Assembly: GCA_018992565.1 (NCBI GenBank)
Contig: JACVGW010000002.1
Coordinates: 1 to 64,000, forward strand
Direction of reading: 5' to 3'
Source of the DNA: Theionarchaea archaeon
Lineage (GTDB): Archaea > Methanobacteriota_B > Thermococci > Methanofastidiosales > SZ-28-30
Length of the DNA stretch: 64,000 bases
Position 1 is the first letter of the stretch; each line of letters starts with the position of its first letter. Position numbers and translations under genes: made by a program. The notes under the pieces are model-generated. The model was not told where the DNA came from. It saw nothing but the letters and a program-made list of their open reading frames with translations, and did not search any database. Positions 10,314 through 62,635 of this stretch are shown here, one piece after another.

Positions 10314-10759
10314 TGTACTCTGACATAATCTAAGGAGTATATAACACTTCTCACGCACATGTGTATATATATCTCTAATTGTAGATGATGATATTTATTG
10401 GAAGAAGAACAACACTTCAGGGCAAGTTCAAACAGGATTCTCTCCTTGATAGGAGAGGAGTCTGTCCTATCAGGATAGCATTGTATTCTGAAGTCTAACC
10501 ATGCCAGGCACTAGTGTTGTATAGGCTGGCAGGAACCTCGTTCAGTCGGGAATTGACACGGAGTCAAGGGCAGGGTTTCAACCAAGAGAGTGGCGAGTTG
10601 ATGATTTTCTTTTGAATTCTCCCAGAACCTCATTCTGCAAATCTAAAGGAATCCGTGGGACAAACAAGGCTGCTATCATCATACTGAAGCCTGGATTGAC
10701 ACATCCTTCAACTTTTCTTAATGGAAAACCATATAAACTTCTGTGATACAAAGAAAGAG

Positions 10760-22986: not shown

Positions 22987-24168
22987 TCACTCCTGGAACT
23001 CCTTTGAGATGATTCTGTATGCATCTCTGAAGGGGATGCCCTCTCTCACAAGGTCGTACACCTTTTCTGTGGCATACACCTCTGGTACTAGAGCGCTCCT
23101 GCAGTTCTCTTCATTTACCTTCACATTCTTCAATACCATTGAGAGTATGTCCAGGCATGATTCTGTAATTATGAAGCTCTTCATGACAGGTTCTTTGGTT
23201 AGCTGTATATCCCTGTTATACCCAGAAGGCAGGTTCCCTGCAAGCCCTTTCAATCTGACTTCATACGATACTATCTCGTGGTATTTCCCACGGAGTATCT
23301 CCAGAACATCAGGATTTTTCTTGTGAGGCATGATGGAACTTCCCGTACAGATTTCAGGATTTAACTCAAAGAACCCGAACTCCTGCATGCTGAAGAGTAT
23401 GATATCTGATGCAGCTTTATTCACATCAGCCATTACTTGAGTGAGAGCGTGGAGTATGGATGATTCGAATTTTCCTCTGCTGTTCTGGACATAGATGGGG
23501 TTTTCTTGCACTCTTGCAAATCCAAGAAGTTTCGCAGTCAGGTTGCGGTCAATTTCAGTGCCAACTCCGTATCCTGCACCAGTTCCCAGAGGCGATTGAT
23601 CTATGAGAACCCTTGTCCACTCCAGTACCATTTTATTATCATCCATAGACTCAATAAACGATTCACTCCACATTCCAACAGAGGAGGGCATGGCCTTTCT
23701 CATATGAGTGTACCCGGGCAGTGCAATGTGTCCATACTCCTTTTCAAATGACTTCAATGCTTCCTCAAGCTCATCTATCTTTTGGAGCACTGACGTAATC
23801 TTGTCTTTGTAATACAGTCGCAGTGCTGTCAGTACCTGGTCATTTCTTGAACGGTAGCAATGAATCTTCTTACCAGCATTTTTTACCTTCTTGACAAGAT
23901 ATGTTTCAATTGCGGTGTGACAATCTTCGTCATCTTGTGTAATCACAAATGTACCGTGTTTGGAACGTGCGAGTATTTCTTCCAGGCAGGTTATGAGACT
24001 CGCAAGTTCTTCTTTCGTGAGAATGTTCATAGCATGAAGCAATTTCGCGTGGGCAATTGATGCAATACAGTCATATGGTACTAGTTCATAATCTGTTACA
24101 AAATCCCTATCTACGGTGAATTCCTCCACCTGTTTGTCAAGTGTATAATCCTTCTTCCATAGTTTCAT
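22987..24168 (-). CDS. argH: Argininosuccinate lyase (short form)
   Basis: RSRNDQ, PGYTH and GSSIMPHKKNPD motifs. Confidence 0.95.
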   Translation of the reverse strand: MKLWKKDYTLDKQVEEFTVDRDFVTDYELVPYDCIASIAHAKLLHAMNILTKEELASLITCLEEILARSKHGTFVITQDDEDCHTAIETYLVKKVKNAGKKIHCYRSRNDQVLTALRLYYKDKITSVLQKIDELEEALKSFEKEYGHIALPGYTHMRKAMPSSVGMWSESFIESMDDNKMVLEWTRVLIDQSPLGTGAGYGVGTEIDRNLTAKLLGFARVQENPIYVQNSRGKFESSILHALTQVMADVNKAASDIILFSMQEFGFFELNPEICTGSSIMPHKKNPDVLEILRGKYHEIVSYEVRLKGLAGNLPSGYNRDIQLTKEPVMKSFIITESCLDILSMVLKNVKVNEENCRSALVPEVYATEKVYDLVREGIPFRDAYRIISKEFQE

Positions 24169-27100: not shown

Positions 27101-27347
27101 TGCTGTCTGGTCTTTCCTTCTCAATGACCTTCTTCACGAAGAGGGGTGTTACCGGGACGAAGTACACCTCATCTGAGAATCCTTTTGATGTCTGGATAGT
27201 TGCAATATTGGGGTTGACCAAAACGGTGGTGACCCCTTCCTCCTGCAGTGCTTTCAGGGCCTGAGATCCCGAGTAGTCAAACTCCCCAGCCTGGCCAATG
27301 GTGAGGCCCCCCGAACCCAGGATAAGTGCCTTATCGTGCATGCGCAT
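24165..27347 (-). CDS. carB: Carbamoyl-phosphate synthase large subunit
   Basis: GQAGEFDYSG, SRSSALASKATG, NPETVSTDYD, RPSYVLSG motifs and an MGS domain. Confidence 0.97.
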   Translation of the reverse strand: MRMHDKALILGSGGLTIGQAGEFDYSGSQALKALQEEGVTTVLVNPNIATIQTSKGFSDEVYFVPVTPLFVKKVIEKERPDSILVSFGGQTALNCGIDLYTSGIFQKYHVDVIGTSIENIIATEDKGTFARTLSSLGIKIPFSLSVSTVDEGMRAAERIGFPLLLRTGFALGGLASGLCLTPEDLQPLLLQALAHSPQVLLEESLVGWKEVEYEVIRDSYDNCITVCNMENMDPMGIHTGESIVVAPSQTLSDDEYQKLRALSLKIARHFSIIGECNVQFALNHDSDEYRVIEVNARLSRSSALASKATGYPIAFIAAKLGLGYNLIDIPNPVTGITTAMVEPALDYIAVKMPRWDSRKFKTIDNHIGSSMKSVGEVMAIGRKFEEAIQKAVRMIDPSFSGLTEDVLIEDLENELIHPTDKRIFALVTAFSKGLTVERVSELTHIDKWFLSKIKAIVDMHEHLQTERLTPDLLKRAKEYGFSDRQIAHSQKRKELQENEIRAMRHRYGIIPVIKQIDTLAAEYPCKTAYLYVTYNAQTDDIPLHQKGVLVIGSGPYSIGSSVEFDWCCVHCVKTLKAQNVKTIVINCNPETVSTDYDECDRLYFEELTSERVLDIYEKEAPDGIILSMGGQIPNSLAHQLSSAGVTILGTPPHVIDSVEDRHTFSTLLDKLGIDQPQWKTLTTLEEVKAFCDQVGYPVLIRPSYVLSGAAMNIAYEETDLEQLLSAAKAVSPAHPVVVTKFITDAREVDMDMVVQKGQIIAWALSEHVENAGVHSGDATLVTPAQRLCLETIAKIRKISESVVSHLDHTGPVNIQVIVKGDEVKVIECNLRASRSIPFVSKVYNTNFIELATRAILGCPLEKVDMKAFDRRYVGVKAPLFSFTRLRGTDPHLGVEMASTGEVACFGEDLQEAFLKAMVSAGVTIPEKILLSTGDIQQKVQLLDSVRKLDKGFVLYGTPGTAGFYKEHNINLEVLPVEGGGDSNVLNYIRKKGIDLVINIPKRDNPGASTGYSIRRVAADFSVPLITDVQCAILFADAISRYTEDDLKPLRWSEYMNRLIL

Positions 27348-28404
27348 CAGCCATCTTCACAAATGTGTCAAACAAGTAATCTGTATCCCTGGGACCGCAG
27401 CACCCTTCAGGGTGGAACTGGACGCTGAAGAAAGGGAGGTGCTTGTGATATATGCCTTCGTTTGTATAGTCATTTACGTTGTAGAACAACTGACCCCATT
27501 CAGGAGACAGAGTACTGGTATCCACAGCAAATCCGTGGTTCTGGGCCGTGATGAACCCTCTCTTTTCAGCTGTTGCCACAGGCTGATTCTGACCTCTATG
27601 ACCATACGGGAGTTTGAATGAACGAGCCCCGGCAGCCAGTGCCAGGAGCTGATGCCCAAGACAGATGCCAAAGAGAGGGATTTCCTGCTCAATCACCTTT
27701 TGCACGATGGCTATGGTTTCCTGACAGGTGGCAGGATCACCAGGTCCATTTGACAAGAGCACTCCATCATAATCCTTGTCTGTAAAATCGTAGTTCCACG
27801 GGACTATCACCACCTGAGCATTCCTGTTGAGAAGGTTTCTCACGATGCTATTCTTGACTCCACAGTCCACTACCACGATTCTAGTCTCTCCTGTTCCCAG
27901 TTCCACCGGATTCTCGCGCGAGACTGCTTTAACAAGATTTTCTTTATTGGGGTCTACAAAGTCAATATCCTCAGAGATGACCACTTTACCGAGCATGACC
28001 CCCTTTTCTCGCAGCTTCACTGTGAGGGCACGCGTATCGATACCAGAAATACCAGGAATTCTCCCCTGCTGCAGCCACGATTCGAAGCTGGTGCGTGCAT
28101 TCCAGTGGTTATGATGGGTGCACCATTCAGACAGGATAACAGCCTTTACATGTATCTTCCGTGATTCAAAGTGGTTGTATACACCATATTCGTCAACAGA
28201 TGGCCCGGGAATCCCGTAATTGCCTATCAAAGGGTAAGCAAAGGTGAGAATCTGACCAGCATACGAAGGATCCGTGAGCGCCTCTGAATATCCTGTCATC
28301 CCGGTGGTAAAGACCACTTCACCTGCAACTGAAGCAGGAAATCCAAAGACAGACCCGGAGAAGGTTGACCCATCTTCAAGAATGAGAGTTCCCGTAGGGT
28401 TCAT
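27331..28404 (-). CDS. carA: Carbamoyl-phosphate synthase small subunit
   Basis: LTDPSY, SNGPGDP, GICLGHQ and QFHPE motifs. Confidence 0.97.
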   Translation of the reverse strand: MNPTGTLILEDGSTFSGSVFGFPASVAGEVVFTTGMTGYSEALTDPSYAGQILTFAYPLIGNYGIPGPSVDEYGVYNHFESRKIHVKAVILSEWCTHHNHWNARTSFESWLQQGRIPGISGIDTRALTVKLREKGVMLGKVVISEDIDFVDPNKENLVKAVSRENPVELGTGETRIVVVDCGVKNSIVRNLLNRNAQVVIVPWNYDFTDKDYDGVLLSNGPGDPATCQETIAIVQKVIEQEIPLFGICLGHQLLALAAGARSFKLPYGHRGQNQPVATAEKRGFITAQNHGFAVDTSTLSPEWGQLFYNVNDYTNEGIYHKHLPFFSVQFHPEGCCGPRDTDYLFDTFVKMADAHAR

Positions 28405-28422
28405 GGTAGTTGTCCCCGTAGG

Positions 28423-29664
28423 TTAATCGAAAAAGGTCTTCCCGTGCTTGTCCAGGATTGCCTTGTGCGCCTTCAGTCGAATAGCATGTATGTTGATGAA
28501 CCCTTCTGAGTCCTTCTGGCTGAACCCTCCTTCGATGTCCATGCTGGACAGGTCTCTATCATAGAGCGAGCTTGGAGATTCTCTTCCCATGACTCTGACA
28601 TTCCCTTTGTACAGCGAGAGATAGACGACACCATCAATCATTTCCTGGCTCTTTTCAATAGCTTTCAAGATGAAGTCCATTTCAGGGGAAAACCAGAATC
28701 CACTGTAAACCATCTCGCTGAATTTTGGCGTCAGCATGTCTCTCAGTCGCATGACTTCCCTGTCCATTGCAATACCTTCAATATCCTGATGTGCGATCCA
28801 CAGGATGGTGGCTCCCGGCGTTTCATACACACCTCTGCTCTTGATGCCCACGGTCCGATTCTCAACCATATCCACGACCCCCACTCCATTCTCTGAACCC
28901 AGGTAGTTGAGGTACTGGAAGAGCTCCAGAGAATCTGTCTTCACTGTTCCGTCTTCTACATTCACCACTTTTATGGGAGTTCCGTCCTTGAAGTGTATTT
29001 CTATTCTCGTTTCTTCATCAGGAGCTTCTTTGAGGCTTTTACAATATTTCAGCATCGTATCCGGGGGACAGTACAGGGGGTCTTCAAGCAACCCTGCTTC
29101 ATGGCTTATGTGCATGAGGTTTGCATCTTCACTGTATATTTCGGTTTCCGATTGTGAGATAGGTATGTTGTGAGCCAGAGCGTATGAAAGTAGATCTGAA
29201 CGTCCTGTAATCTGAGAGAGGAATTCTTGATTTTTCCATGGTGATATAACCTTAATATCGGGATCCAGAGCATAGTAGGTGAGTTCGAACCGAACTTGAT
29301 CATTTCCTTTGCCTGTAGCTCCATGAGCAACATATTCCGCCCCCTCTTTGTGTGCAATTTCTATCTGCTTTCTGGCTATCAGGGGACGTGCAAGACTCGT
29401 TCCTAAGAGGTACCGTCCTTCATAGATGGCATTGGCTTTGATGGCGGTGAAGATGTAGTCTTCAACGAAGTCCCGTTTGAGATCTTCTCGATACACAGTG
29501 GACGCTCCTGTCTTGAGAGCCTTGTCCTCTGCTGCTGCCAGATCTTCATGTTGACCGACATCTGCAATGTAGGCAATGACATCATAGGACCTGTCCTGTA
29601 ACCATGTGAGTATCACTGACGTATCCAATCCGCCACTGTAAGCTAACACGACTTTTGGATTCAT
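28423..29664 (-). CDS. argG: Argininosuccinate synthase
   Basis: [22 protein letters not shown] and KSRGVYETP motifs. Confidence 0.97.
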
Positions 29665-31022: not shown

Positions 31023-32531
31023 CTACCTGTCCAGTACAGGCGTATACCCTGTATCTTCCCGTGTACCTGGCTCATATACTTCTAGGACATCAGATTCCTT
31101 CTTGAATCCATCCCATCTCGTCCTGGGCATTACCAGATGCGCCTTCTCCTCAATCCTTCTCTTTATTTCTGGCTGCATCATCACGTCAATCATCCTGGAA
31201 ATCTCTTTTTCCAGTGGCACTTTGGGTTCAAATCCGAAGGTATGAGGAAGCTTTTTAGATACCACTTCCAGGGGGTGCTTATCAGCTTCCACCCGGGGGT
31301 TCTCCACTTTCTGTATCTTCACATCCAGCCCTGCTTTCTCTCCTGCCTCAGCCACGGTCTCAGCCAGCACACTCAGTTTGTGTAACCCAGAAACCTGGTT
31401 TACTACATCATACTGCCCTGGTTCAGGGGGTGATATGATCAGCCGCACCATGCACTCCATGGCATCTTCCAGAGCAATAAATCCTCGAATCTGTTCTCCA
31501 GTTCCATAGATTGTCAGCGGCATCCCCATGATAGCCTGAGCCACGAACCGATTCACCACTGTCCCGAACCACTCATCTATGTCAAGCCTCGTTCGTAGCC
31601 GTGAATCTTCTGCCACTTCATCTGTATGTACTCCATAGATGACTCCCTGCATCACATCATATGATCGGAGCCACCAGTATTTGCATGCTTCATACACATT
31701 AAACGTATCCTGCACCTTACTGACATGATAGAATGAAACAGGGTCTCTGGGGGTTAACTCACCTCCCAGGCTCCATTCTCTGTCATCCCACTTCATGACT
31801 GCATCCGCCGGAAAAATTCCCTCATACAACGGTCTCCCTGTCAAAGGACTCCCGTACTCGCCCATGGTACCAAGTTTTATCAAACAGGTCTCCGGGACAA
31901 CCTCCTTGATGAGGAATAACAGCCCCAGAGTTCCCAGAACGTTATTTTCCTGTACACGTATTGCATGGCTGCAATCCACCATACTGTAAGGAGCAGATGG
32001 GATTTCCGCATAATGCACTATTGCTTCAGGTTTCACTTCTTCCAAAAATTCCTTCAATGTACTCCTATCCAGAATGTCAATTCTCCTGAAATTGATGTTA
32101 ACACCCAGAACCTCTCTGGCTGCATGCAGTCTCTCTGTCATTCTTTCGATGGGTACAATGGTGTGCGCACCTTTTTCCATGACACAATCTCTTCGCAGGA
32201 AATTGTCTATCCCACTGACTTTGAACCCGAGTTTGCCCAGCTTCAGTGCCAGGGTCCATCCCAAGTATCCGTCTATTCCCAGGATCATAACTCGCATATC
32301 TTTCAGCATTAACCCGTACTGAAATGGAATCCATTCTGGACACTCATCAAATGTAATGGAGGGTTCGAAGTGGCCCAGCTCAGGTCTGCGACTGCATTCA
32401 ATAACAATAAGTCCTTCTTCAACACTCTTGATATCTTCCATGGACTGTCCGCATGCCCTGAAATCTACATTTCCTTTGAAGACAGCTGCAGGACAGTTCC
32501 AGCATGTTTTCTCAGCATTATACGCTTTCAT
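31023..32531 (-). CDS. UDP-sulfoquinovose synthase (SqdB/Agl3 family) with an extra Cys-rich N-terminal domain
   Basis: GIDGYLGW, SAPYSM, GTMGEYG, YHVSKVQD, QGVIYG, FGTVVNRF and ENPRVE motifs. Confidence 0.85.
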   Translation of the reverse strand: MKAYNAEKTCWNCPAAVFKGNVDFRACGQSMEDIKSVEEGLIVIECSRRPELGHFEPSITFDECPEWIPFQYGLMLKDMRVMILGIDGYLGWTLALKLGKLGFKVSGIDNFLRRDCVMEKGAHTIVPIERMTERLHAAREVLGVNINFRRIDILDRSTLKEFLEEVKPEAIVHYAEIPSAPYSMVDCSHAIRVQENNVLGTLGLLFLIKEVVPETCLIKLGTMGEYGSPLTGRPLYEGIFPADAVMKWDDREWSLGGELTPRDPVSFYHVSKVQDTFNVYEACKYWWLRSYDVMQGVIYGVHTDEVAEDSRLRTRLDIDEWFGTVVNRFVAQAIMGMPLTIYGTGEQIRGFIALEDAMECMVRLIISPPEPGQYDVVNQVSGLHKLSVLAETVAEAGEKAGLDVKIQKVENPRVEADKHPLEVVSKKLPHTFGFEPKVPLEKEISRMIDVMMQPEIKRRIEEKAHLVMPRTRWDGFKKESDVLEVYEPGTREDTGYTPVLDR

Positions 32532-40429: not shown

Positions 40430-41209
40430 CTACTTGCTGAGAACGACCAGTGCCTTCTTCTTGACATCCAGGAATCTTGCTGCATCCCCTTTATTCTGTG
40501 AAAGAGTCACCATGCCATCAGAATCCTCGTACAGGAGGAGCTCTCCTGGACTCACTTCTCCAAAGGTTCTGGCATGACGAACATTGATTATTTCTCCTCC
40601 GATTTCCACAGGTATCCGTTCCTCCTGAGGGACCATCCAGGCAGGTATATTGGTCTGAAGGTTGCCAAACCTATCAACACGCAGCACGATCCCTCTGATT
40701 TCTGTTTCACTTTCTTGAGGAAGAGGAATCTGTACGACACTAAGATCATTATGTGCGAGAAAAGGTCCGAACTCAGAGAGAGATATTCCCTTTGCTAGGT
40801 ACCCCGCGGCAGGTGCAAATATATCCCTCCCATGGAAACTGTATGATACGGGATGTAGCATATACTGCTGGTTCTCTAATGCAACTGCGTTCCTGAATTT
40901 CAGAACATCTATAGCTTCTGTCAAGATCCCATTGTCAGGTCCAACAAGAATATCACCACGTTCTGTCTCTACAGCAATTCCCCTCCTTTCAGTTCCTACT
41001 CCGGGGTCTACCACTGCCAGATGTACCCCTACTGGAGAATACTTCACAAAGTTCTTGAGCATAAGAGCTCCTTCTTCAATATCGAACACATGACTATTAT
41101 GGCATATATCAACAATATCTGCTCCAGGACAGATTAAAAGCAGAACAGCCTTACACACCCCGACAAATTCCTGGTCCAGCCCGAAATCAGAGAGAAGACT
41201 TATAAACAT
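40430..41209 (-). CDS. SAM hydroxide adenosyltransferase (DUF62, chlorinase/fluorinase-like)
   Basis: LLSDFG, VVDPGVGT, GPDNG, FHGRDIFAP and DRFGN motifs. Confidence 0.93.
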   Translation of the reverse strand: MFISLLSDFGLDQEFVGVCKAVLLLICPGADIVDICHNSHVFDIEEGALMLKNFVKYSPVGVHLAVVDPGVGTERRGIAVETERGDILVGPDNGILTEAIDVLKFRNAVALENQQYMLHPVSYSFHGRDIFAPAAGYLAKGISLSEFGPFLAHNDLSVVQIPLPQESETEIRGIVLRVDRFGNLQTNIPAWMVPQEERIPVEIGGEIINVRHARTFGEVSPGELLLYEDSDGMVTLSQNKGDAARFLDVKKKALVVLSK

Positions 41210-41252
41210 GCACCAACAAACCCCACACACCTAATAAAGCTGAGGGTTACTC

Positions 41253-51812: not shown

Positions 51813-52307
51813 TACGTATCAAGGTGAGAAGATCTGTTTATCATGGAAACACATACTGTCAGGATACTATTGAGAGCTCAAGAGACACAATGGAAGAAGA
51901 GAGACACAGGCCCCCGGTCCTACATCCTGAAAACCAAGAATCAGAGTGTCATTGTGATCCAGACCACGTAGTACCCTGCAGCGAAGATCTGCTGGATCAA
52001 GGATTATGGATTTTTCTGGTGATGTGAGCTTCTGCCCCATTTTACCGGTGGTTATCTCCTTAATGAGCAACGTTCGAAATCCAGCGGGCACTATAATTAG
52101 ACTATTCTTGCTCCTGAATTGTCCACCGTACTGATTTGTAACAGAATATTGACGTGGCATATGAATAATGGACAGCTCTCATGACTTGTCTGGACTGTAG
52201 GATCTTCTGACCAGACTTCATGCAGTGGGACGCTCCTTTTTGCATTGCAGGATCACAAGAGAAATCTTTAAATTCTTCTCTTCCTTAGTAGAAAGGAGGT
52301 GTGCTGT

Positions 52308-53201
52308 ATGAAAAGGAATTACTATTTGATTGTCGCCATTACCACAGTACTCCTTTCTTCATGTATTGGGCAGGAAAAGGAATGGACTGTGGATGACTGG
52401 AAGGACCATCTCATGTTTGTCAATCCAAGCGGAACCCAGGGAAGCATTCCAGGCTTTATACCTACCTCGGGCAATATAAGAGACCTCCCTGTAGGAACAC
52501 ACATGGTGTTCGATATTTCATCAAAAGGAGAAGCAAGGGGTCTTGAGCTACCCATGAACCAGGTCCTGGGGTTGACGTATCTTGGGATAGAACCACTCAA
52601 TGGGAAGGAATGCGCTGCGTTGCAGGTCTCCATGAATATGGAATTGGAGATGCTTGGGGAGTCAATGATCTTAACCGGCGAAGGAAAGCAATGGATTGAT
52701 GAAGATGGTGCACCAGTGAAAATGGAGATGAGAGGCAGTGGAAACGTGTCCGGGATGGAAATTCCGATCGCCATTAATGGTGTTCTCACAGAAGAGACAG
52801 TATACCAGGGGCATGATTGCTGGGTGTTCAACATAACTCAAGAAGCAGAGATGATGGGCATTTCCAATAGAACAGAGATGACTATGTACCTGGATAAAGA
52901 GAGTCGAGCCCCAGTGCGAATGAAAATGAAAATGGGAGATCTCGAACAGGATTCAGGCTACATTCAACCCTTTTTCTCAATTGGACCATCCACATGGGAG
53001 CTAGGACCAAAAGAAACTATAACAACCCCTCTGGGAACCTACGAGTGTCAGGTCATTCACATAATGGAAGAAGGAAAAACAGTGGGTACAATATGGGCTA
53101 CCAAAGATATGAGGACTCCGTTAAAGTACGTTTATGTCTCCGGGGATGAAGAATCCAGTCTTGAAACGACCCTGGTTCTCACAGAATATAGCTCTGGCTG
53201 A
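52308..53201 (+). CDS. Putative lipoprotein, paralog 3
   Basis: LSSCIGQEKEWTVDDWKDHLMF; C-terminal ETITTPLGTYEC...GTIW. Confidence 0.78.
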   Translation: MKRNYYLIVAITTVLLSSCIGQEKEWTVDDWKDHLMFVNPSGTQGSIPGFIPTSGNIRDLPVGTHMVFDISSKGEARGLELPMNQVLGLTYLGIEPLNGKECAALQVSMNMELEMLGESMILTGEGKQWIDEDGAPVKMEMRGSGNVSGMEIPIAINGVLTEETVYQGHDCWVFNITQEAEMMGISNRTEMTMYLDKESRAPVRMKMKMGDLEQDSGYIQPFFSIGPSTWELGPKETITTPLGTYECQVIHIMEEGKTVGTIWATKDMRTPLKYVYVSGDEESSLETTLVLTEYSSG

Positions 53202-54717: not shown

Positions 54718-54971
54718 CACGTTCAGTAACCATCATGACTTAAAGCTTTCACCTTTGCGCGCTTGATTTCTTCTGGTACTGTGGTGACGGTGGAACCCGA
54801 GGCCAGAGGATGTTACAGAGAAATAGTCATTATTGCCATTCCAGATCGCCATCAATTATAACATAATAACATCTGGGAAATAATAGTTAGTATATAGTTT
54901 CTCATAGCTTTTCGTGATAACCCATCACTATTTATATGTCTACACAGTTCTCAGTACAAGGAGGTTATTTC

Positions 54972-55880
54972 ATGAGTTCAGTATGTGCAATCTATTCAAT
55001 CCAGCCTGGCAAAGTCGCCAATACCCTCATTGTTGAGCAGGTCTGGTCTGTGGCTACGGGAACATTGCCTGAGGGATATACTAGCATTTTTCCCTTCGCC
55101 ATTAACAGCGACTCCTACATGCTCATGTATGACAAGACCACTCATGAGGCAGATATGTACTTGATAAAGGGTACGACCTGGATGAACAGGGTAGCAAGTC
55201 AAGACCTGGATTCTGGCTTTGATATTATGAATTCGTTTTTACTCGCCAATCAGCCACACATTCTGGCGTATAATGCAAAATCAGGCACATTCGAGTTCTT
55301 TCTGATTGAGCAAAATCTGACGCTCTCTTTGTTGTACACCTATTCGAAATCGTATGGTGATGATGCCACAGTGGGGTACACCACGGTGCAGCCCTTTTCA
55401 TATCGGGGATCAGTGTACTATCTGTGCTACAATTTTGACACAGGGGGAATTGCAGTCTACCAGTTGTCTGTACCTGAAACAGAACCGCTGAAGACTACAG
55501 GAATATATCTGCATGAATGGGCTCAGGGCTGGACTCGGTTTGCATTCTTTAAGGTTGGCGGTGAGAATTTCTTCCTCAAGACTAATACCAAGTATGTCAA
55601 TGTAAACATTGACCACATTGTTGATGATCCTTCTCAGGGTTCTCATCCTGTGGGGACGCATCTGAACCTTCCCCAGGACCTGGATACTGTGGCAGCATTC
55701 TCCATGAATGGAGGAGACCCGTACTTTGTTACCTACAAAAAGAGTGGGGAGACCACGTTCAACAGAATCCATGGGGACTGTCTCGGCTGGACGCAGGAAG
55801 CTGCCCTTTCCACGGTGGAAGATGCGAGTCTTGCGGTTCCATTCCAGATAGGTAGTATGAATTATGTACTCATTTACTGA
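54972..55880 (+). CDS. Uncharacterised beta-propeller-like repeat protein
   Basis: About six ~48-aa repeats of the form (W/Y/F)xxxxxFxxxGxx(Y/F)hhxY; GGAGGT RBS; no signal peptide. Confidence 0.65.
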   Translation: MSSVCAIYSIQPGKVANTLIVEQVWSVATGTLPEGYTSIFPFAINSDSYMLMYDKTTHEADMYLIKGTTWMNRVASQDLDSGFDIMNSFLLANQPHILAYNAKSGTFEFFLIEQNLTLSLLYTYSKSYGDDATVGYTTVQPFSYRGSVYYLCYNFDTGGIAVYQLSVPETEPLKTTGIYLHEWAQGWTRFAFFKVGGENFFLKTNTKYVNVNIDHIVDDPSQGSHPVGTHLNLPQDLDTVAAFSMNGGDPYFVTYKKSGETTFNRIHGDCLGWTQEAALSTVEDASLAVPFQIGSMNYVLIY

Positions 55881-55964
55881 CTTTTCTTCTCTTTTCTTTT
55901 CCTCTTTGCCTTCTTATTTGTCTTTTATGTATCTTTCATTTCTCCGTTCTTTCCCAGGTTTCTT
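55881..55964 (+). terminator. Long pyrimidine/T-rich tract between convergent genes, putative archaeal terminator
   Basis: CTTTTCTTCTCTTTTCTTTTCCTCTTT... directly after the stop codon. Confidence 0.45.
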
Positions 55965-57641
55965 TCATGGCTCTGTCATTTTGCCGCCTGCAGCAATAGC
56001 TTCTGCCACTTTTTCCAGGAACCCAGGAGGAGGTGGCGCTTCCTTATTCTTGTTGTATGGGCATTTCAACGGGAATTCCCAGTGATCATTGACACAGAAG
56101 CAGCATGATCCTTCAGTGCGGGTTAAGTACCCAGAACCATCCGTGCCATCCGTATAGAAAAGTTTTTTCGCGCGGTAGAGACTGCCCAAGACCTCGGCCA
56201 TGGTGCTGTGTACATCGTAGAACCCTTTCATCAGAACAGACAGTGCACTCGTATATTTTTCCTTTAAATCGTTCATGACACCCTGTGCATCCTCTATTAA
56301 CTCCAGTGCTATGAAGTCCTCTTTCTTCTGGGAAGGCACATATTCAACCCTCTTGTGGTCATTCTTCAGGAACTGGTAGCAATCAAAATATTCTGTCTTA
56401 AATGCATCCCAATCCTCTGGGCTCATGCGGAACTGCGGAAGGAAATTGGAAGCGTATGAAAAGTGCGGGGTAACCACGATCTGGGTTGTTAAGGAATACT
56501 TCATCTCATCGATTGTGGTGGAAAATCTAAAGACGCACGGATTGTCCGTATCGGTGGTGCTGCGAAACAGCGTGAATGCCCCGTCTTCAGGATGGGAAGG
56601 CAGTGGGGGATTTGCTGAAATGTATTTCCCGAATGCTCCCTCGAACATGGTGTATGTTGCCTCGCCCACCAGGAAGAGCACCACAGGTCTGGTCTGCACG
56701 AGCTGTTTCATGGCGAAGGCATTCGTAGAGACACAGTTGGTGATAATGGTATTCTCGCTTTGAGAAGTCCCTCCTAGGTAATCAGGGGACCAGTGAGGTG
56801 AAGCACATGCTACCATGTCTAGCTGGCAGACATCTTCTCCCATGCGTAATTGAGCATCTTTGTGTCCTTCATCCTGTAAGTAGTGCTGGAATTGTTCAAG
56901 TACTGGAATGAACTGTTCGTAATACTCTTCTTTCTGCTGGTACACTTCAACATTCTGCCCCGGTGGGACAGTGAGTCGCGCAGCAATGATGTCACCTTTT
57001 TGAAACCGGTTGGTTGGAGGGTAGGTATCGAACAACAGGACATACCGCGGTTCACCCAGGTTGCGCTCAAGAGGAATTTTGGTCTCTTTTTCAGAGCTAT
57101 CATATTGTACATATACCACGAAATTCGGGGAATCACTCGTTCGCTCTGATGAAACAACAGTACCAGAATCTTCTGCAATGATCTGCCCCTCTGGCAGGAG
57201 TTGACTTTTGATAAAGTCAAGACTGAAACATTCCTGATAGATGGTACGATACCGGTAGTAATAACTGTACTTTATGTATTCGTCAGTATTGTCATTACCT
57301 GTGGAATGCAGGTAACACCAGGAGGCTCCTTTCTGACCTGGAGAAAATGCTGTCAAATTGGGGTTGATACCGATGGTCATGATAGGTGCCTTGCGGCATC
57401 CATCCATGATTTCAGGGTTGGGGAATCCAGGTTCTGACGTCTTGCCTGCTACCCAGGGCGAAGGTGGGGGCTGTTCTTGGGGTGTATTCGAGGTGAAATC
57501 ATAGGTGGGAAAGGGTCCATAGGGCTGCGGCTTTTCCGGGGGCCAGAAATAGTGACAGGTACGGCAGGGTCGCACAGTGTAGACAAGAGCGACTTCTAAG
57601 GGATCAGAAGAAAGTTGAGAATTTTTTGGTGAGTTGGACAT
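55965..57641 (-). CDS. Large Cys-rich protein with a putative uracil-DNA-glycosylase-superfamily fold
   Basis: IMTIGINPN, LDMVACAS, QLVQTRPVVLFLVGE and VVTPHFSY occur in UDG-fold order; also N-terminal CRTC and C-terminal CCFC...CPY. Confidence 0.5.
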   Translation of the reverse strand: MSNSPKNSQLSSDPLEVALVYTVRPCRTCHYFWPPEKPQPYGPFPTYDFTSNTPQEQPPPSPWVAGKTSEPGFPNPEIMDGCRKAPIMTIGINPNLTAFSPGQKGASWCYLHSTGNDNTDEYIKYSYYYRYRTIYQECFSLDFIKSQLLPEGQIIAEDSGTVVSSERTSDSPNFVVYVQYDSSEKETKIPLERNLGEPRYVLLFDTYPPTNRFQKGDIIAARLTVPPGQNVEVYQQKEEYYEQFIPVLEQFQHYLQDEGHKDAQLRMGEDVCQLDMVACASPHWSPDYLGGTSQSENTIITNCVSTNAFAMKQLVQTRPVVLFLVGEATYTMFEGAFGKYISANPPLPSHPEDGAFTLFRSTTDTDNPCVFRFSTTIDEMKYSLTTQIVVTPHFSYASNFLPQFRMSPEDWDAFKTEYFDCYQFLKNDHKRVEYVPSQKKEDFIALELIEDAQGVMNDLKEKYTSALSVLMKGFYDVHSTMAEVLGSLYRAKKLFYTDGTDGSGYLTRTEGSCCFCVNDHWEFPLKCPYNKNKEAPPPPGFLEKVAEAIAAGGKMTEP

Positions 57642-57644
57642 TTG

Positions 57645-58400
57645 TTACCCTCCATGAAAAGGTGAGCGCCTCTTAAATTGAAGGTTCAGGCAGTCACCAC
57701 TGGTAATGGTGAGGCCTTCCCAGTCGTCCCACAGTCCCGCAGGCAGCGAGACAGGTGTAGCATCTTTTAACAGGATCAGTACTGCAAGTTCTGCTAAGTC
57801 TCTAATTGAGGAGTTTCTCCCTTCCAAGGCAACCCAGTGTTCCCAGTAGACCACGTAGTCAGTTCCAGCACAGATGATGGCTCCATCCAGTCCTTCAGGC
57901 TTGCGATTCTGTTGGTGGTGCGCCCATGCTTCAATATGAGATAAGAATTCTTTGGGTGTCTGGTCCTCAGGGCGTCCTCCCACGAGATGGGTCACCACAC
58001 CGTGCATCCAGTCAGCAGGTGTGTCATACAGGTAGTAGGGCTTTTCTGCCTCAAATGTCTTACCCAGGTATTCAGGGAAGTCAGCAGTACTCGGGGGACC
58101 AAAGAGAGGGCCGTGTGTCAGAACATAGATGCGCTCTGCCAATGTCTTGAATGCATCATGATACGTTTTCTGGCTTTCCCAGAATAGGATTGCAGTCTCA
58201 TCCGGGACAGTCCCCGGTTTCTCAATGCCGGCAGGGAAGGCAGGCACATACACGTGCATCCCTAGCTGTCTTTCCATTTCAACTGCTGCAGGCACGAATA
58301 CAGACCCCGATTTCTGGAAAAATTCACGTAATTCTACCTCTTTCCGTTTATAACCCCGCCATACCCGCACTGCACCTGCGGGCACTTGAATATTGTGCAT
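57645..58400 (-). CDS. Hypothetical protein, possibly tandem EthD-like alpha/beta-barrel domains
   Basis: PDETAILFWESQKTYHDAF resembles the EthD-type DxhhxhWxxS motif; internal member of the operon. Confidence 0.55.
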   Translation of the reverse strand: MHNIQVPAGAVRVWRGYKRKEVELREFFQKSGSVFVPAAVEMERQLGMHVYVPAFPAGIEKPGTVPDETAILFWESQKTYHDAFKTLAERIYVLTHGPLFGPPSTADFPEYLGKTFEAEKPYYLYDTPADWMHGVVTHLVGGRPEDQTPKEFLSHIEAWAHHQQNRKPEGLDGAIICAGTDYVVYWEHWVALEGRNSSIRDLAELAVLILLKDATPVSLPAGLWDDWEGLTITSGDCLNLQFKRRSPFHGG

Positions 58401-58420
58401 AGTCCACCTCGTTGTTCGAC

Positions 58421-59584
58421 CTAGTCCATTCCGGCAATGATTGCCCAGTTGGCCAGGACGCTGTTGACGCTGGTCCAGTATCCATAGATATCATAGAACC
58501 AAGTTGCCCAGAACTCCTGTACGCTTGGGGACTTTGAGGGGAGGTCTCCATTGATCTGTGGATCAGAGAAATTCCTAATGGAAGCCCAGCATGGGGGGTT
58601 ATCCATTTCAGATAGCACCATGCCTAGGACAGCATCATCCATCTCCACCGCAATTCCCATCTTGTCCAGATCGTTGGATGAGGTACCGAACAGGAATATA
58701 TCTGTGGTGATGATTGGCCAGAATTTTGCCGTGTTACCTGCACCATCCAGCTGAATCACTGGTTGTGGGGGAGGTGGTTGAAGCGGGGAACCGGTGTACT
58801 GTTTAGTGGGTGCGTCACAGGGAGGTTGTGCAATATTGGACTTCAGGCTGTCCATGGCATCAACAGCTGTGGAGAACCAGGTATCCTTAATATCCCAGTT
58901 CGAAGTATACTTCTTGTTGTTGAAGGGCTCGTTCTTGAAATCCTTTTTCAAGTAGAAGAGAGCACCGCGCGTGACCGCCACACCTCCCAGGGGCTGGGAT
59001 TCACTGACACCTCCCGCTGTACCGGTGGTGAGGAACACTTTCGGGGTTGCTTCTTTGGTAATCTGGGCAAATAAATCCTTTATGGGCAACGTATATGTCC
59101 CCTGATCTGTCTTCTTGGCGTCCTGTGCCAAGTGGAGTTCAGATTTGTAGCATAGAACTGTTTTTGTGCCAATCTTGGTCAGGAAATAGCTGCCCAGTCT
59201 CTTGCTCTTGGAAGCAGGTGCACCATCACGGATCAATGGTTCATAGTGCTCTTTGAAAAATCGGGTGTAGGGATACCATGCGTATCGTGTGTATCCAGGA
59301 GTGAAGACATCTGCCAATGCATCGCACTCAGCTACCGTGTAGGTCATGACAACAACGTCAGCAGATGGGAGCGGGTCCTCGGGTTGAGGTGCAGGTTGCA
59401 GCGGCTGTGGTTTTGGGACCAGGTTGTCAGGAAGGTGAATATTGAGGTCAGCAGTTCTTAATTCGCTTTCAGAAAGGGTAGAAAGATCAGGAGTCACCTG
59501 AAAATCCTGCTCTGTCATACCTGCAGACAAGATTCTGCGGGCAAGGTCCTGACGCACATCAAGGTCTATATCTTCTTCTGTCAT
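58421..59584 (-). CDS. Divergent purine/uridine nucleoside phosphorylase (PNP/MTAN) fold protein
   Basis: DVVVMTYTVAE, FLTTGTAGGV, IITTD, AVEMDD and SIRNFSD in PNP_UDP order. Confidence 0.7.
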   Translation of the reverse strand: MTEEDIDLDVRQDLARRILSAGMTEQDFQVTPDLSTLSESELRTADLNIHLPDNLVPKPQPLQPAPQPEDPLPSADVVVMTYTVAECDALADVFTPGYTRYAWYPYTRFFKEHYEPLIRDGAPASKSKRLGSYFLTKIGTKTVLCYKSELHLAQDAKKTDQGTYTLPIKDLFAQITKEATPKVFLTTGTAGGVSESQPLGGVAVTRGALFYLKKDFKNEPFNNKKYTSNWDIKDTWFSTAVDAMDSLKSNIAQPPCDAPTKQYTGSPLQPPPPQPVIQLDGAGNTAKFWPIITTDIFLFGTSSNDLDKMGIAVEMDDAVLGMVLSEMDNPPCWASIRNFSDPQINGDLPSKSPSVQEFWATWFYDIYGYWTSVNSVLANWAIIAGMD

Positions 59585-59610
59585 TATATCATCTCCTTTG
59601 TAAATGATGA

Positions 59611-61536
59611 TTAGCCCGTGTCCGGGTAGAGCTCCTTTCTCACTTCGTATAACTCCAGTTCATCCAGTGTCTCTTCCAGTGGGTAGGCAGTCTCAGGGTT
59701 GTACCCCATTGCCTTGTAGTAGTTCTTCTTGGCAGTCTCAACATCAGGTGAGTTCTCTGCATCGGGTCCTTCTTTCAGGGGAGGAATCCCCTTTGCACGG
59801 TCTGTCATCACGGTATCACCTGGGCGGATGCCCTCGCGGATGTTGAAAGAGTGGCGAATCGTCTTTATTCTCCTGCCAATCATAAGGTAGTCTTCAAAGT
59901 TCTTCTTCCAGCCAGTGGCGTAATTTATCCATTCTACCAGTGGAGGAGTTAATCCCCCGCTGAACCCAAAAGCACACAACCCCAACCCTTCAACTAAATC
60001 CATCATGCAGCTGGCATCCCGCAGATCATCTCCCTGGTTGACATCTGCATGTTTGCGCCCGAAGGGGCGGGGATACAATGTCCTGTATGGATCTGTTTTT
60101 CTGTACTTGTCACACGCATCCAATGTGCTCGTGTGTCTTCCTGGTGTGGGCTCTGCCTCGTAGCCAACACCCAATCCCAAGTTCTCATTATCGGGAACAC
60201 GCGGGTCATGCATGGGAAGTTCCTGCCCTCCTGCATTCACTGCGTATGATATAGAGGACTTACCTTTTGACCCGAAGTGCTCACAAGCCTTTTTCACACC
60301 CATGCGCAGGTACTGGCCAATTCCCTCTCCGTTGATCATTTTTTGAACCAGTTGAACAACGGCTTCTGCATTACCCCAGGTCAATTCCAGCCCACCTGTG
60401 TCCTCTTTCGTGATAACGCCATTCTCGTACGCTTCAAATGCCCAGGAAACCACAGCACCACAACTGATAGTGTCGATACCCGCCCGGTTCAACATGTCAT
60501 TAATTTTGATAATTCTCCTTACATCGTTGCAGAGCAACATGGTGCCAAAACTGCATAACGTCTCGTACTCAGGCTTGTGCGCGTCCTGCAACGGGTAAGG
60601 ACCATCCTTCACCGTCATGCGACCACCGCAGCGAACAGGACAGTGATAGCACCCATACGTTTCTACCTCGTAGTTGGTGACAGCATCATCTGAAATTCTC
60701 TTGGCTACCTCTTCAGGAAAATCTGTTATTCCCGCACCTTTCCAGTTCTTCACCGGGGATTCGCCACACTCAGCGAAGTAGCTCACGAAGGCAGGCGTCC
60801 CCCAGGTTCTGAATTTCACAATGTGGGGATCTTTGAAAACATCTTCCAAGAAGAGTCCTGAATACTGTGCAAGAGACTTCTGATCATACACCCTCGTACT
60901 GGCATTCCCCCTGATGCAGACTGCTTTCAGCTTTTTTGATCCCATGACAGCACCCAGCCCGCTCCTGGCAGCAAGTCGTCCCTTGTCGGTAACAACACCT
61001 GCTATCAGTGAGAGTGTTTCCCCTGCGGGTCCAATGCAGGCAGTCTCGAACTCTTTTCCGTGTTTTTTCCGGAGATAATCATCAGTGAAGGTTGTATCTT
61101 TACCCCAGATTTCAGATGCATCTATCAGTTCTTTCTTACCATCATCAATGAGCAAGTACACAGGCGAAGGGCTCACACCGGTGAAGAAAAAGCCATCATA
61201 CCCTGTTTTCTTGATTGCGGGAGCAAAGTAACCGCCGCAGTTGGCATCACCCCACGTCCCTGTCAGCGGGCTTTTTCCAGCAACCATCCAGCGTCCATTC
61301 ATGAGGGCACCCGTACCTGTGAGCAAGCCGCTCATCACACAGAAGATGTTCTCCGGTCCCAGTGGATCTGCCCCTGGTTTCTGGCGATCAAAAAGGATCT
61401 TGGCGGCCAACCCGTATCCTGAAAGAAATTTCTCGTAGTACTCGTCTGGAATGACTTCTTCTGTGATAGCTCCCGTCTCAAGATTGACCCACAGAATCTT
61501 ACCCATGTACCCGAATTTTTGAGGTTCATTTCCCAT
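59611..61536 (-). CDS. Tungsten aldehyde:ferredoxin oxidoreductase family enzyme
   Basis: GYMGKILWVNL, KSPLTG, AARSGLGAVMGSKKLKA, CYHCPVRC, EYET, DTIS and GLC motifs; GGAGGTGA RBS before ATG 61536. Confidence 0.95.
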   Translation of the reverse strand: MGNEPQKFGYMGKILWVNLETGAITEEVIPDEYYEKFLSGYGLAAKILFDRQKPGADPLGPENIFCVMSGLLTGTGALMNGRWMVAGKSPLTGTWGDANCGGYFAPAIKKTGYDGFFFTGVSPSPVYLLIDDGKKELIDASEIWGKDTTFTDDYLRKKHGKEFETACIGPAGETLSLIAGVVTDKGRLAARSGLGAVMGSKKLKAVCIRGNASTRVYDQKSLAQYSGLFLEDVFKDPHIVKFRTWGTPAFVSYFAECGESPVKNWKGAGITDFPEEVAKRISDDAVTNYEVETYGCYHCPVRCGGRMTVKDGPYPLQDAHKPEYETLCSFGTMLLCNDVRRIIKINDMLNRAGIDTISCGAVVSWAFEAYENGVITKEDTGGLELTWGNAEAVVQLVQKMINGEGIGQYLRMGVKKACEHFGSKGKSSISYAVNAGGQELPMHDPRVPDNENLGLGVGYEAEPTPGRHTSTLDACDKYRKTDPYRTLYPRPFGRKHADVNQGDDLRDASCMMDLVEGLGLCAFGFSGGLTPPLVEWINYATGWKKNFEDYLMIGRRIKTIRHSFNIREGIRPGDTVMTDRAKGIPPLKEGPDAENSPDVETAKKNYYKAMGYNPETAYPLEETLDELELYEVRKELYPDTG

Positions 61537-61831
61537 GTTTTTCACCTCCGTATACTGGAGTCCAGTAGATCAAAAGGCTACGGCCGGCTCGTCTACAGTA
61601 AAGAGAAACCCCGAGCCATAGTGAGTACGTTAATTACTTCGCCACTGGACATATCTCGTCTCTATCAGGGGAACTATAAAAGGGTTTGCAATTTTATTGG
61701 TTACTGCACTTTTGTGCTAATTCCAATTCATATACAATACTTTAATGTCTTTTTTACTTGTGAATATGAATTGCTGCAGAAAACAGTAATAGGATGACCA
61801 ACTTTAAAAGGACTCAGGGAAGAATGAGTAC

Positions 61832-62635
61832 ATGCCAGAACTTCCGGATCTGGAAGTGCTGAGAGAACGACTGGAGTCCTTGATTGGAGACACCATTTCA
61901 GAGGTGGAGATATTATTTCCCCTAACTTTTCGTGTTTTGATAGAAGGCACTCCCCAGAGCGTACTCCTGCATCAACCAGTACAGAGAATTACCAGAAGGG
62001 GGAAGCTCTTGATATTTGAGCTTGATAGTCTGTTTCTTGTTATGAACCTCATGCTGACAGGGAGGTTGCAGCTGACCAGCGCACCTGACACATCCCGCTA
62101 TCCTGTGGTTATCATTCATTTTGAATCAGGGACTGCCTTGAAGATTATGGACTACAAGAAGATGGGCAAAATCTACATAACAGATGATCTCAAGAGAGTA
62201 CCTCAGTACACAAAGCTCGGGGTGGAACCTCTAAGCGAAGAATTTAGTGTGGAGGTTCTTTCACGCATACTCACTGATTCACGGCCAGTTAAGGTGGTTT
62301 TGACTGACCAGAGCAAGATTGCAGGAATTGGAAATGCATATGTGGATGAAATACTCTTTCACGCCAAAATAAATCCTAGAAGAAGAGCTGATTCAATGAA
62401 TCCAGAGGAGATAGTATATCTGTATGATTCCATCCTGACAGTGTTGAACAATGGAATCAAGAACCTCAGCGAAAGGGCTGGCGACATGTCAGAAGAAGTC
62501 CGTGATTTCCTGCTCGTACATGGGAAGAAAGGCCAGAGGTGTCCAACATGCGGGGCTCAAATTAAGGAAATTGAAGTTTCCAGGAGAGTCACTCATGTAT
62601 GCCCTTCCTGCCAGAAGGTTACGCTCCCCTGGTAG
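61832..62635 (+). CDS. Fpg/Nei family DNA glycosylase
   Basis: N-terminal MPELPD, RRGK, H2TH AGIGNAYVDE and C-terminal CPTC...CPSCQ zinc finger. Confidence 0.93.
   Translation: MPELPDLEVLRERLESLIGDTISEVEILFPLTFRVLIEGTPQSVLLHQPVQRITRRGKLLIFELDSLFLVMNLMLTGRLQLTSAPDTSRYPVVIIHFESGTALKIMDYKKMGKIYITDDLKRVPQYTKLGVEPLSEEFSVEVLSRILTDSRPVKVVLTDQSKIAGIGNAYVDEILFHAKINPRRRADSMNPEEIVYLYDSILTVLNNGIKNLSERAGDMSEEVRDFLLVHGKKGQRCPTCGAQIKEIEVSRRVTHVCPSCQKVTLPW

Follow-up and report, generated by a model that had tools for sequence, protein, structure and literature searches.

A widespread four-gene cassette coupling a PNP/MTAN-like nucleosidase to a putative uracil-DNA-glycosylase-like protein, found in a Theionarchaea archaeon and in many bacteria

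This study concerns a 64,000-nucleotide stretch of DNA from an uncultured Theionarchaea archaeon (contig JACVGW010000002.1 of assembly GCA_018992565.1, positions 1 to 64,000; hereafter the window) and five genes near its end. Four lie on the minus strand and encode an aldehyde:ferredoxin oxidoreductase (AOR), a 387-aa PNP/MTAN-like protein, a 251-aa protein predicted to form a barrel, and a cysteine-rich 558-aa protein with features of uracil-DNA glycosylases (UDGs), which we call the anchor. The fifth, on the plus strand, encodes a protein of six repeats. The minus-strand genes are separated by 26 (AOR–PNP), 20 (PNP–251-aa) and 3 nt (251-aa–558-aa), and the run converges on the six-repeat gene. 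The initial annotation, made by a model from the letters alone, had described this layout and the ribosome-binding-site (RBS)-like motifs, and both coordinates and motifs agree with it. It had also noted that three of the four minus-strand genes lack a standard annotation, and the Pfam and NCBIfam results for these were indeed empty or sub-threshold. Our analysis revealed that the real unit is a horizontally spread module of four genes (PNP, anchor, barrel and six-repeat), not a five-gene AOR operon.

The evidence for this unit comes from bacteria. A genome scan with an alignment of the anchor family yielded 70 bacterial loci from many phyla, in which partners were sought by tblastn with the window and locus proteins. 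The main counts refer to the 44 loci in which the anchor homologue is flanked by 5 kb or more in both directions; overall counts refer to the 68 loci in which the match covers at least 40% of the 558-aa protein, L069 and L070 being dropped. The closest anchor relatives (72–89% identical) are metagenomic and are not among the loci counted for neighbours. A PNP gene was found in 33 of the 44 fully flanked loci, a barrel gene in 31 and a six-repeat gene in 29, and 27 held all three together. None of the three was present in 7 loci, and only the PNP gene in 5. AOR was found in 0/44 fully flanked loci and in 0/68 overall. The carriers belong to Bacteroidota, Acidobacteriota, Pseudomonadota, Actinomycetota, Planctomycetota and Verrucomicrobiota.

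The genes are also physically joined. PNP and anchor form a single open reading frame (ORF) of more than 850 aa in 14 loci, and NCBI (PGAP) annotates the fusion as one 980-aa coding sequence in two Burkholderia replicons. In Burkholderia, start and stop codons overlap among the fusion, two barrel genes and a phosphoesterase gene. The barrel gene often occurs as two tandem paralogues, and both copies are fused in L048 and L052. Chance juxtaposition of the module genes is excluded by the co-occurrence counts. The initial annotation had made its reading depend on whether the homologues recur together in other genomes; they do so for the PNP, barrel, UDG-like and propeller genes, and not for AOR. 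The propeller (six-repeat) gene, which it had called an orphan, is therefore misnamed, since a homologue adjoins the UDG-like gene in 29 of the 44 loci.

Direct reading of the window found AGGAG 5′ of the PNP gene, GAGGTGG 5′ of the 251-aa gene, GGAGGG 5′ of the 558-aa gene and GGAGGTGA 5′ of the AOR ATG at 61536, all resembling RBSs, and GGAGG 7 nt 5′ of the six-repeat ATG at 54972. Because such motifs precede the ATGs at 54972 and 61536, these are likely the true starts of the six-repeat and AOR genes (Table 1). The Atlas version of the six-repeat protein begins at residue 13 of the ORF. In a consensus scan, promoter-like sites were no more frequent than in shuffles, terminator-like sites were not enriched (4 against a shuffle mean of 6.7), and neither kind fell within the 26-, 20- and 3-nt gaps. 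No canonical hairpin terminator was called in the convergent spacer, which is likely a termination zone for both converging transcripts. An Rfam search of the window and 16 loci returned two tRNAs only and no riboswitch.

Table 1. Positions of the five genes and of the convergent spacer in the window
Feature	Position	Strand	Remarks
Six-repeat gene	54936-55880	+	ORF span; 314 aa; 302 aa if ATG 54972 is used
Convergent spacer	55881..55964	.	84 nt, T/C-rich, between both stop codons
558-aa anchor (UDG-like) gene	55965-57641	-	Cysteine-rich; ORF call
251-aa barrel gene	57645-58400	-	Tandem ferredoxin-like; ORF call
387-aa PNP/MTAN-like gene	58421-59584	-	N-terminal extension of ~70 aa; ORF call
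AOR gene	59611-61545	-	ORF span; likely start ATG 61536

The gene at 59611..61536 unambiguously encodes a tungsten/molybdopterin AOR, as had been annotated: both AFOR domains were matched far above the Pfam cutoffs (PF01314, 4e-88, 296.6 bits; PF02730, 8e-72, 241.5 bits), and a CxxCxxxC motif is visible in the translation. AOR is probably co-transcribed with the module in this archaeon. It lies outside the conserved module and is a resident host gene behind which the module landed. The initial annotation had offered two readings, a single pathway that includes AOR and a defence module that landed downstream of it. The first did not hold as a conserved arrangement, and the framing of a module that landed is the better of the two; as to its defence part, PADLOC gave no match, the neighbouring genes showed no consistent defence signature and a phage collection contained no copy.

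That the five window genes nevertheless form one AOR-centred pathway, with the glycosidic enzymes feeding an aldehyde to AOR, seems to us distinctly unlikely. In its favour are the 26-nt gap between the AOR and PNP genes, the RBS there and the absence of a terminator call. A three-subunit XDH/PaoABC-type molybdenum enzyme (2Fe-2S, molybdenum cofactor and FAD subunits), pterin-dependent and not homologous to AOR, adjoins the same genes in L013, L018, L020, L047 and partly L016, which parallels the pterin-dependent AOR of the window. According to the part of PMC6365646 available to us, a related molybdenum enzyme of the CoxLS type oxidises deoxyribose, so that an aldehyde step after base removal is chemically reasonable. 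The oxidative deoxyribose catabolism covered there resembles such a scheme in its pterin-dependent oxidoreductase acting on a sugar aldehyde, a possible model for AOR and the XDH-type enzyme. It differs in that its lactonase, SDR and beta-keto acid cleavage enzyme were not seen beside the module, where the likeness is one of adjacency only. The pathway is further opposed by the lack of AOR in 68 of 68 related loci, and the XDH-linked copies form one clade of the anchor tree, which indicates a single event to be counted once. The XDH-type enzyme (for example, L047:3987-7692) stands in place of the barrel and six-repeat genes, and both divergent and co-directional layouts occur.

The 387-aa protein was the clearest of the uncharacterised products. 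Pfam PNP_UDP_1 (PF01048) matched it below threshold (E 0.0024, 17.8 bits; cutoff 25.1) and an Aquimarina homologue at 23.6 bits, and a single-sequence search of the PDB gave no match at E≤10. A profile of 25 family members, in contrast to the single sequence, matched 51 PDB sequences at E≤1, the best being MTA/SAH nucleosidases at E 2e-9; 4g89 and 1jys are among the solved MTANs matched. In the profile alignment, GTAGG falls on GSAGG and EMDDA..RNISD on EMEA..RAISD of the solved enzymes. The corresponding motifs of the window protein are GTAGG (188–192), EMDDA (314–318) and RNFSD (337–341), within which G188, T189, G191, G192, M315, D317, R337, N338, S340 and D341 are invariant in the 25 sequences and E314 is at least 90% conserved. 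The GxAGG loop, the ribose-binding Glu (E-M-E type) and the catalytic Asp (I-S-D type) are thus all kept.

These matches support membership of the PNP/MTAN superfamily, as the initial annotation had proposed, and suggest that the protein is probably a divergent, active N-ribosyl hydrolase or phosphorylase of MTAN/PNP type. It shares with MTAN and DeoD-type PNP the profile homology and the aligned GxAGG, E-M-(E/D) and R-x-I-S-D motifs. In contrast to them, it is about 150 residues longer, owing to an N-terminal extension and inserts, scores below the Pfam cutoff, and in the module is often fused to the 558-aa protein. The module PNPs fall into three divergent subtypes, 26–49% identical to the window protein.

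The anchor is the most strongly conserved member of the module. A word-indexed search found 660 homologues, and the best 120 of these are 50–89% identical over their full length and come from several phyla, with 50–57% identity between phyla. All of these 120 are named "hypothetical" except one, "GTPase, partial". RefSeq/PGAP also calls the PNP–UDG-like fusion a "GTPase" (L072:7792-10734; L073:8274-11234). Pfam and NCBIfam scans of the window protein gave no support for this name, which looks like a propagated misnomer, and no family match of any kind.

Eight cysteines are conserved (C26, C29, C82, C279, C303, C513, C516 and C527), together with the motifs GINPN (91–95), VACASPHW (277–284), VLFLVGE (321–327) and PHFSY (392–396). 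Across 40 diverse relatives, GINPN never varies at N93 and P94, and at least 90% keep H393 of PHFSY. Invariant features of the family are the CxxC at 26–29, DGCRKAPIMTIGINPN, GEDVCQLDMVACASPHW, NCVS...QT.P.VLFLVGE, PHFSY and a C-terminal CxFCxN...C. Within the putative core lies a beta-rich insert of about 135 residues (about 135–270), and beyond the core is a C-terminal extension. Some relatives carry fused helix-hairpin-helix DNA-binding domains, an amidohydrolase or DNase II.

Several observations point to a UDG-type core. Sub-threshold matches to Pfam UDG (PF03167) occurred in 2 of the 28 close relatives and in 24 of the 75 diverse ones (best E 2.1e-4; cutoff 24.3 bits), while the next most recurrent Pfam family among the diverse relatives reached 2/75. 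The five UDG matches that were mapped all fall on residues about 250–414 of the 558-aa protein. The UDG superfamily includes family 2, Mug/TDG, with its GINPG motif, and the iron-sulfur families 4 and 5. Its members have an alpha/beta/alpha fold with a parallel sheet of four strands, in which motif A, bearing the water-activating residue, comes after strand 1 and motif B, with His or Asn, after the last strand. The anchor resembles Mug/TDG in its GINPN with invariant Asn-Pro and in PHFSY, which contains a His and comes after the last strand of the core. In two weak hhalign alignments, the core elements occur in the same order as in E. coli Mug; these were made against Mug alone and against an alignment of 18 Mug sequences of low diversity (70–90% identical). 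The cysteine pattern (CxxC upstream, C in "VACASP", C in "NCVS") resembles the 4Fe-4S ligands of UDG family 4. Taken together, a UDG-type core is rather probable, and the 558-aa protein would then be a new insert-bearing, metal-cluster-binding branch of the superfamily.

The differences from known UDGs are considerable. The anchor has 558 residues compared with about 170–220, its insert of about 135 residues lies between motif A and the rest of the core, its C-terminal extension of about 160 residues bears a further CxxC...C, and it has no significant sequence or fold match. A single-sequence PDB search gave nothing at E≤10, and PDB profile searches with two alignments of the family gave nothing meaningful. 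A profile search of the whole library (1.84 billion proteins) found only 226 representative clusters, all of the anchor family, and no bridge to ordinary UDGs. The AlphaFold2 model of the whole protein has a pLDDT of 77 (core 50–76). TDG appears twice among its low-probability Foldseek matches (rank 27, 0.13; rank 50, 0.11), and a phage COG1573 UDG takes rank 9 (0.28). The best local matches are pieces of RNA-polymerase beta subunits over 73–114 columns (probability up to 0.99), which probably stem from the modelled beta-rich insert; these subunits come from bacteria and jumbo phages. The UDG-like fold of the initial annotation therefore stands as probable only, with the sub-threshold matches and motifs for it. 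A predicted complex of the 558-aa and PNP-like proteins obtained a score of 0.00 and a mark of 0.32, which counts neither for nor against binding.

The 251-aa protein had been annotated as EthD-like. Its AlphaFold2 model (pLDDT 94.2, pTM 0.92) has two ferredoxin-like halves in one chain, and Foldseek gave 23 PDB matches at E≤1e-3, all of the dimeric alpha+beta barrel fold class. The top matches are the tandem ABM-type "putative monooxygenases" 3f44 and 3mcs, sulfur oxygenase reductase and PenE, followed by an anthrone-oxidase-like protein and methylmuconolactone isomerase. On the strength of this model, the protein is of the tandem ferredoxin-like, dimeric alpha+beta barrel type. EthD belongs to this superfamily, so that the earlier call was right as to fold class and not as to sequence: 0/39 family members matched EthD (PF07110) or any barrel family in Pfam at E≤1, and a PDB profile search gave nothing meaningful. 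Overall, two of the three fold calls of the initial annotation were correct. The likeness to 3f44, 3mcs, PenE and sulfur oxygenase reductase reaches a Foldseek probability of 1.0 and E to 8e-6, at TM-scores of 0.3–0.38 and 7–13% identity. In contrast to ABM, EthD and Dabb proteins, the family has no Pfam match and its own conserved set (WRG, Y, PD, Y..H, S, W, W), which in the window protein comprises W14, R15, G16, Y51, P66, D67, Y92, H96, S104, W131 and W186.

The six repeats of about 50 aa that had been noted in the fifth protein were recovered when its family profile was aligned with itself (E 7e-10 to 1e-4), at shifts of about 50, 100, 150, 205 and 255 residues. The best-conserved block is WAxGWTRFAFFxxGGENFFxKxN...NVNIDH. 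Pfam scans of 29 family members found no recurrent family, and a PDB profile search found nothing. The Atlas names it fucose-lectin, tachylectin or FG-GAP, which are unscored leads. A six-bladed beta-propeller is probable. No signal peptide was visible by eye in any module protein.

Larger versions of the module exist in bacteria, and in them Pfam assigns DNase II, Metallophos, Ferritin-like, DyP and GDPD. The commonest full form (12/44) comprises DNase II, PNP with the anchor, two barrel genes, a metallophosphoesterase, the six-repeat gene and a ferritin-like gene (PF12902). In a second form (4/44), a DyP-like peroxidase and two small uncharacterised genes replace these extras. In a distant branch (3/44), the partners of the anchor are a LysR regulator, a GDPD-like esterase and a barrel gene that is transcribed divergently. 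LysR or AraC regulators adjoin some versions. A search of the 64 kb of the window for the metallophosphoesterase, ferritin-like protein, DNase II, DyP, GDPD and the families f16 and f19 found none of them.

The first gene of the seven-gene Burkholderia version matches B. thailandensis DNase II over its full length (E 2e-191), and Pfam DNase_II is matched in the Aquimarina cluster at 9e-86. The B. thailandensis enzyme (PDB 5i3e/5unb) is thus the known counterpart of the DNase II of larger versions; no such gene lies in the window. It has been solved and is active at pH 4–5 without metals, has no secretion signal and has no assigned role, and in the accessible portion of that report its genomic neighbours are unmentioned, the words "operon", "neighbor" and "gene cluster" occurring 0 times (PMC5449587).

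These properties also fit a cytotoxic enzyme cargo against eukaryotic grazers or hosts, released on digestion, with DNase II and base-removing enzymes acting in the food vacuole and a lectin-like propeller. We give this explanation very little credence. Three RebB R-body genes lie 1.6 kb downstream of the seven-gene cluster on the B. pyrrocinia replicon pBPJTT (L072:17709-19115), the Paraburkholderia copy is followed after 1 kb, on its downstream side, by a gene for a Big_2 and phage-tail-sheath-like protein, possibly of a contractile injection system (L051:10739-13390), and the six-repeat protein carries the Atlas lead "fucose-specific lectin". However, Reb genes occur in only 1/72 loci searched, so that a link between R-bodies and the module was rejected, the sheath-like gene is seen in one locus, the minimal module of the window has no DNase II, and the lectin label was assigned automatically to an unscored lead. 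On its upstream side, the Paraburkholderia copy also has a second DyP-like gene (L051:417-2036).

The tailoring-like enzymes raise another explanation, a biosynthetic cluster for a secondary metabolite derived from a nucleoside or base, in which the glycosidic enzymes supply the precursor and the barrel, ferritin-like and DyP proteins modify it. Tailoring is commonly carried out by tandem ABM barrels, di-iron ferritin-like proteins and peroxidases, the structural matches of the barrel include PenE and anthrone-oxidase-like proteins, and the hosts include Aquimarina, Pseudovibrio, Burkholderia and Teredinibacter. Tyrosinase and an MbnB-type enzyme of ribosomally synthesised and post-translationally modified peptides (RiPPs) lie near some copies: a tyrosinase gene flanks the seven-gene cluster at L072:3452-5080, and a DUF2063 and MbnB/DUF692 pair adjoins the cluster in Pseudovibrio (L054:13610-17512, with a 697-aa ferritin-like protein) and in Burkholderia sp. 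FERM BP-3421 (L073:19579-20668, with DoxX). However, such neighbours were seen only once or twice, no polyketide synthase, non-ribosomal peptide synthetase, radical SAM, glycosyl- or methyltransferase, transporter or resistance gene is conserved, and DNase II and a phosphoesterase would be odd in such a cluster. We consider biosynthesis highly unlikely.

The distribution of the module indicates exchange between lineages. In a quick maximum-likelihood tree of 68 anchor sequences, phylum labels change 18 times against a minimum of 7; the tree is arbitrarily rooted and carries SH-aLRT support only. The window anchor and three metagenomic relatives group inside a clade (96% support) that otherwise consists of marine Bacteroidota, Pseudomonadota and one Planctomycetota, and by this sequence tree the archaeal copy nests among bacterial copies. 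The window PNP is closest to Acidobacteriota versions, while its anchor and barrel have their nearest counterparts in Planctomycetota and Bacteroidota, so that the cassette is mosaic. Two copies lie on large Burkholderia replicons, and a phage collection held no copy. Each genome has its own flanking genes. The 57 flank ORFs scanned, of 115 candidates in 12 loci (L029 was left out for its high G+C content and unreliable ORF calls), include ATP synthase, chitinase, an AddB-like nuclease, peptidases, efflux genes and a RiPP enzyme, with nothing recurrent or defence-like. The G+C content of the five window genes, overall and at third codon positions, falls in the host-gene range, so that composition gives no transfer signal.

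Such a distribution raises the question of immunity. If the module were an anti-phage or abortive-infection system, sensing of phage DNA (for example, of modified bases) would fall to the six-repeat or UDG-like protein, the PNP-like enzyme would deplete a nucleotide, and DNase II and the phosphoesterase would destroy DNA. PNP-fold ATP nucleosidases are known immune effectors according to the part of 10.1101/2023.01.24.525353 available to us. Consistent with this role, all parts lack signal peptides, the distribution is patchy with clades of mixed phyla, the flanks vary as described, an integrase fragment lies near the L054 copy, and the module reached an archaeon. The likeness to the Detocs- and CBASS-type systems lies in a PNP-fold enzyme within a mobile, patchy gene set. 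In contrast to these systems, the module has no sensor or signalling partners of their kind; its partners are the UDG-like, barrel and six-repeat proteins. The five proteins gave 0 matches to 5027 PADLOC models at E≤1 (PADLOC-DB 2.0.0, systems to 2023), no version has an NTPase, helicase, STAND, TIR or cyclase partner, and the 57 flank ORFs include 0 restriction, CRISPR or toxin-antitoxin genes. Immune genes seldom keep 50–57% identity between phyla over a length of 558 aa, and the barrel, ferritin-like, DyP and XDH-type enzymes and the LysR/AraC regulators suggest small-molecule chemistry. We therefore regard an immune function as unlikely.

We favor another interpretation, put forward with a little less than even confidence: an undescribed, putative cytoplasmic module for cutting N-glycosidic bonds in a substrate derived from DNA or nucleotides and for oxidising the products. 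The nucleosidase and the 558-aa protein would act as one cytoplasmic unit on N-glycosidic bonds, one enzyme on free or nucleotide-level ribosides and the other on a polymer or bulkier substrate, and the barrel protein would oxidise or isomerise the released product. In larger versions, a ferritin-like protein, DyP-like peroxidase or XDH-type enzyme may share the oxidation role, and DNase II, the metallophosphoesterase or the GDPD-like esterase may open the backbone at phosphodiester and phosphomonoester bonds. In this archaeon, AOR may be the enzyme that oxidises an aldehyde product, either an opened sugar or a formyl base, although this link is not conserved. The six-repeat protein may bind substrate or hold the enzymes together. 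The role is most likely to degrade or clear nucleic-acid material, whether for catabolism, for salvage or to rid the cell of damaged or modified bases, and not immunity, because small-molecule regulators (LysR, AraC) adjoin some versions, oxidoreductase partners differ between versions, conservation of the anchor is strong and a known immune signature is absent.

Several points weigh against this interpretation. The loci with the anchor alone or with the PNP gene only show that the four-gene set is common, not obligatory. The link to AOR is found in one genome and that to the XDH-type enzyme in one clade. The UDG call for the anchor rests on sub-threshold matches in relatives and on motifs, the window protein itself having no Pfam UDG match; Foldseek of its model against PDB and BFVD gave no match at E≤1e-3, and the profile–profile comparison with Mug aligned the GINP motif only, at a probability of about 2%. 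Conflict systems, too, typically use cytoplasmic DNase II, PNP-fold and phosphoesterase enzymes as effectors, and a patchy distribution across phyla fits defence or toxin cargo as well as accessory metabolism. The extras are missing from the window, so that the minimal version may do something narrower.

A more specific proposal, which we offer tentatively and as doubtful, is a multi-enzyme machine in which a new iron-sulfur branch of UDGs is physically coupled to an MTAN-type nucleosidase; the pair would remove bases from DNA or nucleotides and pass them to cofactor-independent or iron oxygenases, a new route for dismantling nucleic acids, the cassette being exchanged by bacteria and at least one archaeal lineage. 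Depending on context, this machine might serve the clean-up of base damage or act as an undescribed immune or anti-grazer effector set. If true, it would explain why bacteria keep an intracellular DNase II.

The finding of a widespread, undescribed enzyme cassette is well supported whichever function applies. The literature searched, with few subscription journals, held no description of this gene combination, and PADLOC-DB 2.0.0 and Rfam gave no match, in agreement with the initial annotation, which had offered an undescribed pathway as one of its readings. The parts belong to known superfamilies, firmly for the PNP/MTAN and barrel folds and probably for UDG, and the assembly is new. Three of the four module proteins have no Pfam or NCBIfam family, yet at least 120 anchor homologues, from several phyla, reach 50% identity. 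Should the 558-aa protein be a glycosylase, a superfamily mined for decades would gain a large family that binds metal and bears an insert, and the fusion of anchor and nucleosidase would, if this holds, be a new enzyme architecture. Through the module, bacterial DNase II, which has had no assigned role since its structure was solved, is for the first time placed in a genomic context. The module is also a clear example of how bacterial genes became fixed as a cassette in an uncultured archaeon. It marks a probable new way of dismantling nucleic-acid building blocks, and its enzymology is directly testable as to substrates, metal clusters and complexes.

The remainder of the window carries archaeal markers, namely genes for mevalonate kinase, an archaeal-type D-aminoacyl-tRNA deacylase and HypD, and an argG-carA-carB-argH block at 22987-29664 (-), whose argininosuccinate synthase is 91% identical to a protein of a Theionarchaea metagenome-assembled genome (MAG). 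A gene like that for UDP-sulfoquinovose synthase lies at 31023-32531 (-), and a Methanosarcina-type beta-propeller repeat protein is encoded at 8814-10358 (-); like the argG block, both are ordinary host genes that helped assign the window to Archaea. The gene at 40430-41230 (-) matches (R)-S-adenosyl-L-methionine hydrolases or fluorinase-type enzymes below the cutoff (NF058624, 1.5e-54). A full Fpg/Nei-type DNA glycosylase gene at 61832-62635 (+) is divergent from AOR and 296 nt away. Fpg is uncommon in archaea. In a Bacteroidota MAG, an Fpg/Nei-like gene (L067:6908-7966, minus strand) abuts the most distant relative of the 558-aa protein; a link between Fpg and the module was not retained, as it is seen in the window and 1/70 loci only and may be chance. 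Finally, the gene at 52299-53201 (+) encodes a DUF3108-like protein (PF11306, 1.8e-9), of a family that is mostly bacterial, and may be another transferred gene near the module.

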